DNA of 64,000 bases, taken from NCBI RefSeq assembly GCF_003334305.1, contig NZ_QOWS01000004.1, one strand, 5' to 3'. A program made the position numbers. Source of the DNA: Escherichia coli (GTDB taxonomy: Bacteria > Pseudomonadota > Gammaproteobacteria > Enterobacterales > Enterobacteriaceae). Shown piece after piece: positions 5,805 through 20,800 of the stretch; within the stretch, counting starts at the first letter, position 1; each line of letters begins with the position of its first letter.

Positions 5805-8800
5805 CGGTTCAAATCCGGCCCCCGCAACCAATTATTGAACACCCTAACGGGTGTTTTTTTGTTTCTGCTCTCCCAAAAAAAAAGCGCCATTCAGCGCCTT
5901 TTTATCATCCCCTTCTCGCCAGCGTCGCCCCATCGGCAAAATACGCTTTAATTCCCGCAAGAATAGACTCCGCAACTTCCTGCTGGAAAGTCGCCGTTTT
6001 CAGTTTACGCTCTTCCTCAACGTTACTGATAAACGCCGTTTCGACCAGAATGGAGGGAATATCTGGTGCCTTTAGTACGGCAAACCCGGCCTGTTCAACT
6101 TGATTTTTATGCAGCTTGTTGATTTTACCGAGCTTATTCAGTACCGCTTTACCAAACTTCAGGCTGTCGGCAATGGTCAGCGACTGCACCATATCGAACA
6201 TGGTGTGGTCGACATAGCGGTCACCGCTTTTGCTCACGCCACCAATCAAGTCCGAGGCGTTCTGGGTTTGTGCCAGATATTTTGCCGCAGTACTGGTTGC
6301 ACCTTTGGTTGAGAGCGCAAACACAGAGGAACCGCTCGGCTGACGACTGGTAAAGGCGTCGGCATGGATAGAGACAAACAGGTCAGCACGCTGTTTCTGG
6401 GCTTTTGCTACGCGCACTTGCAACGGAATGAAGATGTCTTCATTGCGCGTCATGTACACCTTCATATTGCCCTCTTTCTCGATCAGAGAGCGCAAACGGC
6501 GAGCTATTTGCAATACCACGTCTTTTTCGCGCGTTTTGTATTTCCCCACCGCACCGGAGTCTTCGCCACCGTGGCCAGGGTCAAGCATAATGACAATCGG
6601 ACGATCGCGCCCTGCTTTACCCGGTTGTGGACCACTTTGTGCTGGCGGCACCTGCTTTTCGAGGTCGCCTTTGTTGTAATCCTCCAGCAGCGCCAGCAGC
6701 GGGTCCTGCATATCCTGTGCATTGGCCGGATAGAGGTCCATCACCAGACGCTCTTTAAACCCGGCGACCGGCGCAAGGGCAAACAGCTGCGGTTTTACGT
6801 TTTGCTTTAATTCAAAAACCATCCGTACGGTCTGCGGGTCAAATTGCCCGACGCGCGCCGACTTGATGAACGGGTCGTCTGCACGAATTTGTGCCGCCAT
6901 CCCCTTGAGTACCGAGTTCAGGTTTACATCTTCGATATCCACCACCACGCGTTCCGGGTTACTCAACGCGAACTGCTTATATTTCAGCTGACGATTTGAT
7001 TCTACCGTCACACGGGTGTAGCTGGACGCAGGCCAGACGCGCACCGCCACGACCTGGCTGACCGCAGCCAGACTGACCTGACTTACGCTCAATAGCCACA
7101 TGGCACCCGCGCCTTGCAGTAAACGACGACGGCTGATTGCAGTGTTGGATCCTGACATGCCTCTCCCGAGCAAAAGAAATCTAAGCTGTGTAACAAGTAA
7201 ACGACTAATTTGACCGGAAACTTTAGCGAAAGACGCATAATCTGTCATCTAATAAACGGTAAACATTCTTTTTATATTCACGGCATTACTGATAAAAAAG
7301 TCGCTCTCGCATAAAATTTACACTTGCACCCTGCGAAAAAACAGAATAAAAATACACTAATTTCGAATAATCATGCAAAGGGGTGTGCCGTGGTAAAGGA
7401 ACGTAAAACCGAGCTGGTCGAGGGATTCCGCCATTCGGTTCCCTATATCAATACCCACCGGGGAAAAACGTTTGTCATCATGCTCGGCGGTGAAGCCATT
7501 GAGCATGAGAATTTCTCCAGTATCGTTAATGATATCGGGTTGTTGCACAGCCTCGGCATCCGTCTGGTGGTGGTCTATGGCGCACGTCCGCAGATCGACG
7601 CAAATCTGGCCGCGCATCACCACGAACCGCTGTATCACAAGAATATACGTGTGACCGACGCCAAAACACTGGAACTGGTGAAGCAGGCTGCGGGAACATT
7701 GCAACTGGACATCACTGCTCGCCTGTCGATGAGTCTCAATAACACGCCGCTACAGGGCGCGCATATCAACGTCGTCAGTGGCAATTTTATTATTGCCCAG
7801 CCGCTGGGCGTCGATGACGGCGTGGATTACTGCCATAGCGGGCGTATCCGGCGGATTGATGAAGACGCGATCCATCGTCAACTGGACAGCGGTGCAATAG
7901 TGCTAATGGGGCCGGTCGCTGTTTCAGTCACTGGCGAGAGCTTTAATCTGACCTCGGAAGAGATTGCCACTCAACTGGCCATCAAACTGAAAGCTGAAAA
8001 GATGATTGGTTTTTGCTCTTCCCAAGGCGTCACTAATGACGACGGTGATATTGTCTCCGAACTTTTCCCTAACGAAGCGCAAGCACGGGTAGAAGCCCAG
8101 GAAGAGAAAGGCGATTACAACTCCGGTACGGTGCGCTTTTTGCGTGGCGCAGTGAAAGCCTGCCGCAGCGGCGTGCGTCGCTGTCATTTAATCAGTTATC
8201 AGGAAGATGGCGCGCTGTTGCAAGAGTTGTTCTCACGCGACGGTATCGGTACGCAGATTGTGATGGAAAGCGCCGAGCAGATTCGTCGCGCAACAATCAA
8301 CGATATTGGCGGTATTCTGGAGTTGATTCGCCCGCTGGAGCAGCAAGGTATTCTGGTGCGCCGTTCTCGCGAGCAGCTGGAGATGGAAATCGACAAATTC
8401 ACCATTATTCAGCGCGATAACACGACTATTGCCTGCGCCGCGCTCTATCCGTTCCCGGAAGAGAAGATTGGGGAAATGGCCTGTGTGGCAGTTCACCCGG
8501 ATTACCGCAGTTCATCACGGGGCGAGGTTCTGCTGGAACGCATTGCCGCTCAGGCGAAGCAGAGCGGCTTAAGCAAATTATTTGTGCTGACCACGCGCAG
8601 TATTCACTGGTTCCAGGAACGTGGATTTACCCCAGTGGATATTGATTTACTGCCCGAGAGCAAAAAGCAGTTGTACAACTACCAGCGTAAATCCAAAGTG
8701 TTGATGGCGGATTTAGGGTAAGCGATGAAAATCGTCGGATGCGACATGCGTAACACTCGTACGTCGCATCCGGCAATTACGTTTATTCCCGTGAACTAAA

Positions 8801-17800: not shown

Positions 17801-20800
17801 GCTGCATCTCCTGGCACTGTGTTTCCCAGAAAATTTCACCAAAAGCGCCATACGGTAAATCCCCTGCCGCCCGGAAGCGGCGGAACAAGCGTTCGGCATC
17901 ATCCTGCTCAACCAGTGCATTCAATAACTGCTGATTGATTTGATAACGACTAAGCCCTTCAAGAATAAATGGCTCGGTGTCGGGGATTTCGCTGTCTTCA
18001 GTACGGAAGTTCACCTGCAAACGCATCTGGAAGAACGCCCGCACCGGATGTGCCCAGAATCGTTGTAGCGTTTCCAGCGGCACGGTTTCCGGTAAGGTAA
18101 ACGGCAGCGGCTGAACAAATTCAGAATGTGCTTTACCAGCCTGGCTGGCCGCAGGTAGCCATTCACGAGCATAGCTTTGTCGTTCGCCTGGCTGGTAGTT
18201 TTGTGGATCAAACGGCATCCGGGTATGGAGGCAAGTAAGATGCGCTTTTACCCTTGCCTCGCTTTCATCACAGTTGAGCGCTTCATCGCCCGGTAGATAA
18301 TGACTTTGCCCGATGTAGTCGATCAGTTCCTGCACCAGTACCGACGGGAAACGTTCACTGTTATCCTGAATGGAGCGCCCGATATAGCTGATATAAAGTT
18401 TTTGTTGCGCGGAAATTAACGCTTCCAGGAACAGATAGCGGTCATCATCGCGACGGCTACGGTCGCCACGCTTCGGTTTCTGGCTCATCAGGTCAAAGCC
18501 CAATGGCGCAAGCTGACGTGGATAAACGCCGTCGTTCATTCCCAGCAGGCAAACCACTTTGAACGGAATTGAACGCATTGGCATCAGAGTACAAATGTTA
18601 ACCGGTCCGGCGAGAAAACGCTGGCTGATACGTTCTTGATCCAGGCGCTGTGCCAGTTCATCACGCAATAGTGACAGCGGCACCGCGTCGCCATACTGCG
18701 CACCTAAACCTTCGGCGATAATCGCCTGCCATTGTTGTTCGATCAGCGTCATCGCCGCTTCGGTTTCCGCATCCGGCAGGAAGAAGGCGTTGAGCATATC
18801 GCGACAAACCGGCAACCACTCTTCCAGCGGACGCTCCTGTGCCAGCCCGCGACGCCAGATGTTTAGCTGCATTAGCAGGGAAGCCAGATGCCCCACCAGT
18901 TCTGCAATTAAGCCGCTCGATTCATCATAAGGTAGAACCGATTGCCACTCGCCCTGCGCGCTCTCCATCGCGTAACCCAGCAACATGCGCGTCAGGCCAA
19001 ACCGCCAGGTGTGTTGACCGGTAGCGGGGAGTTCCAGCTCGCGAACGTTGTCGTCATCTATCCCCCAACGAATGCCGGATTCGTTGACCCACTGGCGTAA
19101 ATAACGCAGCCCTTCTTCGGTGATGTCAAACCGCGCCGCCAGCACCGGCACATCCAGCAGCGCCAGCACATCCTCTGACACAAAGCGACTGTCAGGCAGT
19201 GATAACAGGCTGATAAACGCTTCCAGTACCGGATGTGACTGCCGCGCACGACGGTCGGAAATGGCGTAAGGCAGGTAACGATCCGCAGGTGCGCTACCAA
19301 ACACAGCCTGAATAAACGGACTGTAGCTGTCGATATCAGCCACCATCACGATGATGTCGCGCGGAGTAAGTGTCGGGTCTTCTTCCAGCATCGCCAGCAG
19401 GCGATCGTGCAAAACTTCAACTTCACGCTGCGGGCTATGGCAAACGTGGAAGGTGATACTGCTATCCAGTGGATCAAGCGGGCGTTTGTTATCGCTACGG
19501 GAAAACTCTTCGATGTTCACACCAGCAACGGCACGGTTTTCCAGTTCCAGAATGTCAGACTGAATGTTATGCAGCAGGTTATCTGGCGTGACATCGACAA
19601 AGGCGTCCAGCTCCTGGCTGCTCTCCAGGTCAGAAAGGAGATAAATGTAGTCGCGCCCAAGCTTACCCCATGAAGCCAGCAGCGGGTTGCCGACATCCTG
19701 TTCACCATCGCTGTTAAAGAGCTGCCCGGCATTTTCGCTATCACGAAATAGCGGCAATTCGCGATCTTCAAAACTGTGTCGACGCTGACGGGTCAGCAGT
19801 TTCGCCAGATAAGCAGGATCTTTAATATCGCCCCAGTAATAACGGCAGGGGTTGGTAAACAGGAGATGGATTTCAATATGTTTACCCAGCGCCTGTAGCG
19901 CCTGGAGATAAACAGGCGGTAACGCGGAAATACCGCATATAAAGACGCGCGAAGGTAACCCCGGCGGGCAGGTCGTCGCGGACTCCAGCGTTTCGATAAA
20001 GCGCTGATAGAGATTGGCGCGGTGCCAGCGCGGTTGCCCGAGTTGATGGGTATATTCCACCAACGCCTTCCACAACGGCGCTTGCCAGGCCTGTGCTTCT
20101 CCCAGCCCTTCAACCAAATGTCCTGTTTCCCACTGTGCCAGCCAGTCCGGACGATAGACCAGATACTGGTCAAACAGGTCCGCCGCTTTTGAAGAAAGCT
20201 GGAACAGTTTTCGCTTGTCGCTATCGTCAGTCAGATAATGCCGCAACAGGGTAAAGTCTTCGCGATCCAGCAATTGCGGCAGCAGAGTCATCAGTTTCCA
20301 GCTCATGCTCTGTTTGTTAAAGGCGCTCTCTTTGGGGATTTCCGGTAACACCCGGACGAACATATCCCAGATAAAGCTCGCAGGCAGCGGAAAATCAATG
20401 TTTGCCGCAATACCAAACTTTTGCGACAGGGTCATTTGCAGCCACTGCGCCATACCGGTACTTTGCACCAGAATCATCTCTGGTTCGAAAGGATCGTCCA
20501 GCCGTTCGCGTTCGACAATAAACTCCATCAACGCTTCCAGCACGTCCAGACGATTGGAATGGTAGACCCTTAACATAGCGGCTCCTGACTACTGACGATT
20601 CGGGCAATGCAGGCGGGTCATCTCGCCTTCTCTGCCCCCGGGTGAAACTAGCGTAACGCTGATGCTGACACATCCCGCCTGCGATGTCTGCATTCGGTTG
20701 ACCTGCCAGTTGGCAGGTGGCGAAATCGCGCGCAGTTGCGTTTGCTGCCAGCCATGCCGCCAGAGCTGTTGGTACTGGTTTCTGCTGGCAAGACTGTTCA

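Follow-up and report, generated by a model that had tools for sequence, protein, structure and literature searches.

The intact recC-ptrA-recB-recD block of an Escherichia coli strain: overlapping gene ends, a ptrA-headed operon and a predicted leader helix

The locus and its genes

The 64,000-nucleotide stretch of Escherichia coli DNA analysed here (contig NZ_QOWS01000004.1 of assembly GCF_003334305.1; hereafter the window) carries on its minus strand the genes for the three subunits of the RecBCD enzyme, together with ptrA, the gene for the periplasmic protease pitrilysin (Table 1). The region is, almost certainly, the canonical E. coli thyA-argA segment, in which ptrA lies between recC and recB and the genes ptrA, recB and recD form one operon. 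An earlier note on this DNA had described a recD-recB-ptrA-recC block at 8783-20576 as the known arrangement, intact in this strain, and both parts of that description are borne out: the same layout is present in E. coli strain A7 and in K-12 MG1655, the four open reading frames (ORFs) are full length and free of indels relative to K-12, and all four products score above the cut-offs of their NCBIfam equivalog models. The block is an ordinary, intact E. coli arrangement that is already known, and the finding is of use only as an annotation sanity check on a textbook locus; the locus as such is of biological importance.

The 13.5 kb around the block are 100% identical to the chromosome of strain A7 (NZ_CP028767.1), whose RefSeq annotation, in window coordinates, gives the same coordinates for the four minus-strand genes; it places ppdC, ygdB, ppdB, ppdA, thyA and lgt upstream of recC, also on the minus strand, and the convergent argA downstream of recD. 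Alignment to MG1655 reproduced the layout without an indel, at a constant offset of 2147 bases. When the 13.5-kb query was compared with complete E. coli genomes (n = 5426), it was matched in all 5426, with at least 80% of the query covered in 5423. One E. coli genome has the block on a record typed as plasmid. The mechanically called ORF for recB extends to a GTG at 14160; the start used here is the ATG at 14151, which is annotated and aligns with the start in every other genus examined.

Table 1. Features of the recC-ptrA-recB-recD block, in window coordinates
Feature	Position	Strand	Remarks
recC, exodeoxyribonuclease V gamma subunit	17208-20576	-	1122 aa, intact ORF
recC-ptrA spacer, 175 bp, with the ptrA-recB-recD promoter and 5' leader	17033-17207	-	100% identical to K-12
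Putative sigma-70 promoter: -35 TTGCGC (17193-17188), 17-nt spacer, -10 TATGAT (17170-17165)	17165-17193	-	Cross-genus alignment
Predicted ptrA leader	17033-17159	-	P1 helix and P2 hairpin
Predicted helix P1, 5' arm UCACGGACU	17147-17155	-	RNAalifold, minimum-free-energy folds
Predicted hairpin P2 (GCUGA-CUCGU-GCAGC)	17113-17127	-	Fold listing, 24 leaders
36-nt Hfq-binding segment, defined experimentally in K-12	17047-17082	-	Exact match to the deletion sequence of eLife 2025
ptrA Shine-Dalgarno sequence GAGG (17043-17040) and predicted P1 3' arm GGUCCGUGA (17041-17033)	17033-17043	-	Directly before the ATG at 17032
ptrA, pitrilysin (protease III)	14144-17032	-	962 aa, intact
ptrA stop/recB start overlap ATGAGTGA, 8 bp	14144-14151	-	Direct reading
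recB, exodeoxyribonuclease V beta subunit	10609-14151	-	1180 aa, intact
recB stop/recD start overlap TAATG, 1 bp common	10609	-	Direct reading
recD, exodeoxyribonuclease V alpha subunit	8783-10609	-	608 aa, intact
Strong hairpin between convergent recD and argA	8730-8778	.	Fold -28.4 kcal/mol

The four proteins align with their K-12 counterparts without gaps, with identity at 1121 of 1122 residues in RecC, 958 of 962 in PtrA, 1163 of 1180 in RecB and 607 of 608 in RecD. RecC matches NCBIfam model NF008289 with 2129 bits (cut-off 1470) over residues 1-1121 of 1122. RecB scores 2334 bits with NF008128 (cut-off 1697) and 1544 bits with TIGR00609 (cut-off 696), and unites at full length a superfamily 1 (SF1) helicase, with the Walker A motif AGTGKT at residues 24-30, and a C-terminal PD-(D/E)xK nuclease with the motif LLDYK (D1080, K1082). 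RecD scores 1139 bits with NF008127 (cut-off 671) and 656 bits with TIGR01447 (cut-off 310), and is a full-length SF1B helicase in which the Walker A motif GGPGTGKT is seen. Given their 98.6-99.9% identity to the characterised K-12 proteins, these subunits would form the RecBCD heterotrimer with its Chi-regulated helicase-nuclease activity. By its equivalog-level match (NF011681, 1855 bits; cut-off 765), PtrA is identified as the M16A periplasmic zinc protease pitrilysin. Its inverted zincin motif, HxxEH, takes the form HYLEH at residues 88-92, and its N terminus, MPRSTWFKALLLLVALWAPLSQA, is a hydrophobic, signal-like stretch of 23 residues ending in AQA/ET; both features were read from the alignment by eye.

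Overlapping gene ends and their conservation

Direct reading of the two junctions gives the overlaps claimed in the earlier note, 8 bp between the recB start and the ptrA end and 1 bp between the recD start and the recB stop. At the first, ptrA ends AAG AAT GAG TGA and recB begins ATG AGT GAT GTC; the recB ATG falls within the final codons of ptrA, and its Shine-Dalgarno sequence, GAGUGA, is weak and also lies inside ptrA. At the second, which reads GCG TAA TG AAA, a single A is common to both genes, and a strong Shine-Dalgarno sequence, GGAGGAGG, stands just before the overlap. The one-nucleotide overlap of the recB stop with the recD start is documented for K-12 (BMC Biochem 2008, PMC2586629), and both junction sequences in this strain are identical to those of K-12. 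Probes of 60 bases spanning each junction were compared with the complete E. coli genomes: the ptrA/recB probe has a match in 5426 of 5426, with identity of at least 99% in 5218, and the recB/recD probe in 5425 of 5426, with identity of at least 99% in 4821.

To set these junctions beside those of other genera, we used a PtrA scan with one genome per species, which returned 27 loci, 24 from Enterobacteriaceae (counting one Pantoea, of the Erwiniaceae) and three from Endozoicomonas. The three Endozoicomonas matches were set aside as merely PtrA-like, being 30% identical and having no recBCD neighbours. In the 24 remaining loci ptrA stands beside recC, recB or both, and the order is always recC-ptrA-recB-recD. 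Eight further genera were added through protein look-ups; all eight have recC-ptrA-recB, and the ptrA and recB ends overlap by 8 bp in five of them and by 4 bp in the other three. Taken over the other Enterobacteriaceae and the one Pantoea, the order recC-ptrA-recB holds in all 30 loci in which the DNA reaches these genes.

The ptrA and recB ends overlap by 8 or 4 bp in 27 of the 31 readable junctions, the others having gaps of 2, 11, 11 and 130 nt. In the 23 junctions from the scan, our own strain aside, the 8-bp form is found in Escherichia and Citrobacter, and a 4-bp form (ATGA) in Enterobacter, Klebsiella, Pluralibacter, Leclercia, Shimwellia, Pantoea and Entomohabitans. RIT714, Cedecea and Buttiauxella have no overlap but gaps of 2, 11 and 11 nt, respectively. 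The sole large break among the junctions is in Dryocola boscaweniae (L014), where an insert of 130 nt lies between the ptrA stop and the recB start; the insert presumably resembles an ERIC-type intergenic repeat. In 21 of 22 other loci the ends of recB and recD share 1 or 4 bp, the exception being an assembly with evident frameshifts; the junction of Leclercia NCTC13032 (L029), where fragmented matches are consistent with assembly frameshifts, was ignored. The overlaps are not a product of chance: they are conserved across E. coli, and overlap or near-abutment is also found in other genera. An overlap that is kept while its exact form changes is what would be expected if close juxtaposition of stop and start were selected, and the Dryocola insert together with the three gaps of 2-11 nt indicates that strict overlap is not obligatory.

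ptrA heads the recB-recD operon

The earlier note had ptrA embedded in, and probably co-transcribed with, the RecBCD genes. That part stands for ptrA, recB and recD, for which a single spanning transcript is taken from the literature (PMC12342828, PMC2586629, PMC10545897), with a nuance for recC, which the literature treats as a separate unit. RecBCD is described as encoded by two operons, recC alone and ptrA-recB-recD (eLife 2025, PMC12342828); recB and recD together make an operon that has a minor internal recD promoter (PMC2586629), and in Serratia ptrA leads an operon that also contains recB and recD (PMC10545897). Because a conserved promoter-like site lies in the recC-ptrA spacer, ptrA heads the recB-recD operon here and is not an internal gene of one recCBD transcript.

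This site was found by aligning 29 recC-ptrA spacers from other Enterobacteriaceae and one Pantoea. The hexamers TTGCGC and TATGAT are conserved in 22 of the 29 (these include Escherichia, Citrobacter, Salmonella, Klebsiella, Enterobacter and Kosakonia) while the sequence between them varies, and an A-rich tract precedes them. The candidate promoter begins 14 nt past the recC stop codon, and transcription of ptrA-recB-recD would start from it; the 5' end of the ptr mRNA was reportedly mapped, by Claverie-Martin et al. in 1987, to 127 bp upstream of the ATG. The position also agrees with the published distance of 76 nt from the promoter to the Hfq site downstream of it (PMC12342828).

A scan of the 175-bp spacer revealed no terminator-like site between recC and ptrA, and with the promoter only 14 nt after the recC stop, read-through from recC is possible. 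Over the stretch from ptrA to recD, 17 terminator-like sites were found where 16 are expected by chance. The hairpin between the convergent recD and argA genes is unusually stable (z = -3.3; 0 of 200 shuffles as stable), contains a terminator-like scan match at 8746-8733, and probably serves as a two-way terminator at the operon's 3' end. The three genes ptrA, recB and recD are found on one strand, with a putative promoter upstream, no intervening terminator-like sites in excess of chance and a likely terminator after recD. On the other side of the spacer, the stop of ppdC is separated from recC by a gap of 12 nt that holds the Shine-Dalgarno sequence AGGAG, and recC is probably expressed separately, with the abutting upstream genes ppdA-ppdB-ygdB-ppdC.

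A predicted helix in the ptrA leader

We compared 24 ptrA leaders from 14 named genera and two isolates without genus assignment, of which 16 served as input to RNAalifold; eight more genera joined afterwards. The sole consensus helix that RNAalifold predicts from the 16 leaders pairs CACGGACU near the 5' end with GGUCCGUG. This helix, P1, is part of the minimum-free-energy fold in 24 of 24 leaders, and its arms are the most conserved parts of the leader across the set. In the strain under study P1 has 9 bp and would pair the 5' end of the mRNA with the latter half of the Shine-Dalgarno sequence and with the entire spacer that precedes the AUG. Pairing is possible in 94.8% of the alignment cells of P1, compared with 21-46% after a shift of the partner by one to three columns. 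The shuffle and covariation control for P1 was uninformative, the 5' arm being nearly invariant. Four of the eight pairs examined have one-sided, G-U-compatible changes and none has a two-sided change; the support for P1 is therefore conservation and complementarity, and not covariation.

The second predicted element, the hairpin P2, has its GCUG/CAGC stem base at the same position in most of the 24 leaders, the others having a different or differently based hairpin. In a hand alignment its fifth pair is A-U, G-C or C-G depending on the genus, and an A/G mismatch in this strain and in K-12. Folds of the leader by itself are modest in E. coli (z = -1.3) and stronger in Salmonella and Kosakonia; the fold of the whole recC-ptrA spacer has no excess stability (z = -0.4). 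A search of Rfam gave no gathering-level match in the ptrA leader region, the only match with E <= 10 being a chance snoRNA (E = 3.2). The conserved CUGAUG and AAUGAUGAGG had prompted a kink-turn or C/D-box reading, which was rejected on the unmet GA.AG geometry and on the weakness of that same snoRNA match. The text of the eLife 2025 study does not mention a leader helix or structure (PMC12342828).

That the ptrA-recB-recD mRNA begins with a conserved structured leader, in which P1 joins the 5' end to the Shine-Dalgarno/AUG spacer, is a proposal that we put forward tentatively from the comparison of the aligned leaders, as a serious possibility that stops short of being probable. If it is true, P1 would protect the 5' end of the mRNA, throttle the translation of ptrA and, through coupling, that of RecB. 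Conservation of the P1 arms as a DNA-level operator, or as plain conservation of the Shine-Dalgarno sequence, remain alternatives. The predicted leader helix is a plausible regulatory element, and the only item at this locus that is possibly new.

Hfq represses through the ptrA leader, in which a 36-nt segment was deleted in K-12 (PMC12342828). The same segment lies within an insert of about 45 nt (17047-17100 region) that is present in the leaders of Escherichia, Citrobacter and Salmonella and absent from those of Klebsiella, Enterobacter, Pluralibacter, Lelliottia and others, and that is enclosed by the predicted P1 helix; Hfq control through this site may be lineage-specific. In Enterobacter, Leclercia, RIT714 and Lelliottia (L009, L012, L013, L036) a 12-17-nt insert after the P1 3' arm brings a second Shine-Dalgarno sequence (GAGGU). 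In these four the helix would be shifted outward, with the AUG outside it and the ribosome-binding site no longer covered. What the comparison adds at this locus is the Hfq segment as a lineage-specific insert and a leader that is predicted to close over the ptrA ribosome-binding site in many genera. Also within the leader, TGGCAGATGATTTGC at 17084-17098 (minus strand) fits the -24/-12 spacing of the sigma-54 consensus. Conservation fails already inside Escherichia (E. albertii, strain E69), and the match is probably not functional.

Translational coupling and its alternatives

Both junctions have the form of a coupled gene pair, with a start overlapping a stop by 8 bp and 1 bp, respectively, and the overlaps are kept, as 8 or 4 bp and as 1 or 4 bp, in most relatives. 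As the recB start and its weak ribosome-binding site lie inside ptrA, and recD begins on the last base of the recB stop, the likeliest mechanism would be a hand-over in which ribosomes finishing one gene start the next, from ptrA to recB and from recB to recD. Translational coupling of these two pairs, which the arrangement of the junctions suggests, would tie a low and roughly matched output of RecB and RecD to the translation of ptrA. The ribosome-binding site of recB within ptrA has been read as suggesting translational coupling, and RecBCD is present at fewer than 10 molecules per cell, with both shortage and excess being harmful (PMC12342828).

A number of points weigh against this picture of a coupled operon. 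The eLife authors themselves call the coupling only potential (PMC12342828), and in four genera ptrA and recB are separated by gaps of 2-130 nt. The generic promoter scan had no hit at the promoter proposed in the recC-ptrA spacer; it missed the site because the -35 box matches at only 3 of 6 positions, and its threshold skips such boxes. Induction by sigma-E has been reported and no sigma-E consensus was found at 16900-17900, which leaves the transcriptional picture incomplete. No point was found that contradicts the gene identification.

The overlaps could instead reflect genome compaction, with recB and recD initiating at their own ribosome-binding sites, recD partly from its minor promoter, and the translation of ptrA having no effect on the output of RecB or RecD. 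In bacterial operons generally no junction types are commoner than overlaps of 1, 4 and 8 bp, and such an explanation would sit well with this, as with the strong Shine-Dalgarno sequence ahead of recD, the ptrA/recB gaps in four genera and the minor internal recD promoter that has been reported (PMC2586629). It accounts less well for the persistence of overlap in 27 of 31 ptrA/recB and 21 of 22 recB/recD junctions despite the change between 8 and 4 bp, or for the weakness of the recB Shine-Dalgarno sequence. In addition, deletion of a leader segment upstream of ptrA shifts the translational efficiency of RecB about two-fold (PMC12342828), an effect that is simplest to understand if the translation of RecB depends on events at the ptrA start. 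We therefore consider compaction an unlikely explanation and prefer the hand-over of ribosomes along the operon.

A further question is why ptrA has stayed with recB and recD. In array studies, over-expression of sigma-E raises the transcripts of recC, ptrA, recB and recD 3- to 11-fold (PMC2731931), and a second paper likewise reports the induction of all four genes (PMC2909356); transcription of recBCD has also been called constitutive (eLife 2025, PMC12342828). It could be argued from this induction, and from an arrangement that is invariant in every Enterobacteriaceae and Pantoea locus sampled, that ptrA is kept with recB and recD because the envelope-stress (sigma-E) response calls for a periplasmic protease at the same time as for the repair of DNA breaks. 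We searched 16900-17900 for sites of the type GGAACTT-N14-18-TCAAA and found no sigma-E consensus promoter in this interval; a reasonable threshold gave no match and a loose one only poor matches. The conserved 5' box of the leader was also tried as a sigma-E -35/-10 element and rejected, since it agrees with GGAACTT at only 3 of 7 positions and lies 12 to 18 nt from the conserved GCTG, depending on the genus. The conserved order is equally expected from inheritance and operon constraint. In the eLife account, which cites Cromie 2009, PtrA has no known role in repair and, by horizontal insertion, probably interrupted an ancestral recC-recB-recD order (PMC12342828). A shared sigma-E function is on these grounds a quite improbable reason for the position of ptrA.

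Damage to the block in this strain, be it a pseudogene, an insertion-sequence insertion, a rearrangement or an assembly error, can safely be dismissed, since nothing speaks for it beyond the mention of 17 amino acid differences between RecB and its K-12 counterpart, every ORF is full length with zero indels relative to K-12, and those differences belong to a divergent but common allele under constraint.

A divergent recB allele

The 17 substitutions in RecB compare with 1-4 in RecC, PtrA and RecD. Twelve of them fall in the 3' third of recB (about 10852-12051), where the nucleotide difference from K-12 reaches 7% per 300 bp. In this patch synonymous divergence (dS) is 0.23 and the ratio of nonsynonymous to synonymous divergence (dN/dS) is 0.06; dS is lower outside it, at 0.035 over nucleotides 1-2100 of recB and at 0.04-0.05 in recC, ptrA and recD. 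Among the E. coli genomes the recB 3' segment is at least 99% identical to that of this strain in 1165, 95-99% in 2712 and 90-95% in 1549, and the divergence of the patch is similar to that between E. coli and other sampled Escherichia species or lineages. Smaller divergent clusters relative to K-12 lie at about 10235-10260 and 15500-15800. The patch looks like an allele that is old or was imported; it is a recombination mosaic kept under purifying selection and not a case of adaptive divergence. Diversifying selection acting on the nuclease domain of RecB, for instance by phage inhibitors, was considered and rejected on the low dN/dS in the face of so high a dS. In one complete genome, NZ_CP161803.1 (strain Z135-5), just 11% of the recB 3' segment finds a match, and this genome may carry a recB deletion.

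Other features of the window

Chi sites (GCTGGTGG) number seven on the minus strand (9808, 13968, 16819, 21914, 31341, 31683 and 34565) and zero on the plus strand, with 1.5 expected by chance, a distribution consistent with their known leading-strand bias; three of them fall inside recD, recB and ptrA. Between mltA and amiC, at 5754-5830, there is one initiator tRNA-Met gene, as in A7, where K-12 has three in tandem (metZ, metW, metV). A heavily decayed type III secretion (ETT2-like) island occupies about 48700-62230; at least eight of its genes are annotated with frameshifts or internal stops in the identical A7 record, and the island is presumably more complete here than in K-12. Small RNAs with gathering-level matches to Rfam are GcvB (1225-1430) and the tandem OmrA and OmrB (34250-34337 and 34453-34534).

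Comparison with known systems

The closest characterised system is the recC-ptrA-recB-recD locus of K-12 MG1655 (b2822-b2819; NC_000913.3, 2950635-2962428), to which the block is identical in gene order, strand and protein lengths (1122, 962, 1180 and 608 aa), as well as in its 175-bp spacer, its 8-bp and 1-bp overlaps and its 36-nt Hfq site. The two strains differ by 1.5% of nucleotides over 13.5 kb, and the differences cluster towards the 3' end of recB, in its last third.

The operons of other Enterobacterales (Salmonella, Citrobacter, Klebsiella, Enterobacter, Kosakonia and others, and Serratia from PMC10545897) share the gene order, a stop/start overlap at both junctions and, in 22 of the 29 spacers, the promoter hexamers. 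They differ in that Klebsiella, Enterobacter, Lelliottia, Pantoea and others have the 4-bp ATGA in place of the 8-bp overlap, in that the length of the leader ranges from about 80 to 145 nt, and in that the Hfq segment is confined to Escherichia, Citrobacter and Salmonella. Beyond these, recC-recB-recD clusters of other bacteria have the subunit genes in a matching relative order and, by the description given in PMC12342828 (citing Cromie 2009), no protease gene between recC and recB. The junctions themselves resemble those of trpE-trpD, trpB-trpA and galT-galK, where, likewise, the second gene starts on or right beside the stop codon of the first and has its ribosome-binding site within that first gene (cited in PMC12342828); in those three pairs coupling was shown by experiment, whereas for ptrA-recB and recB-recD we infer it from the form of the junctions.

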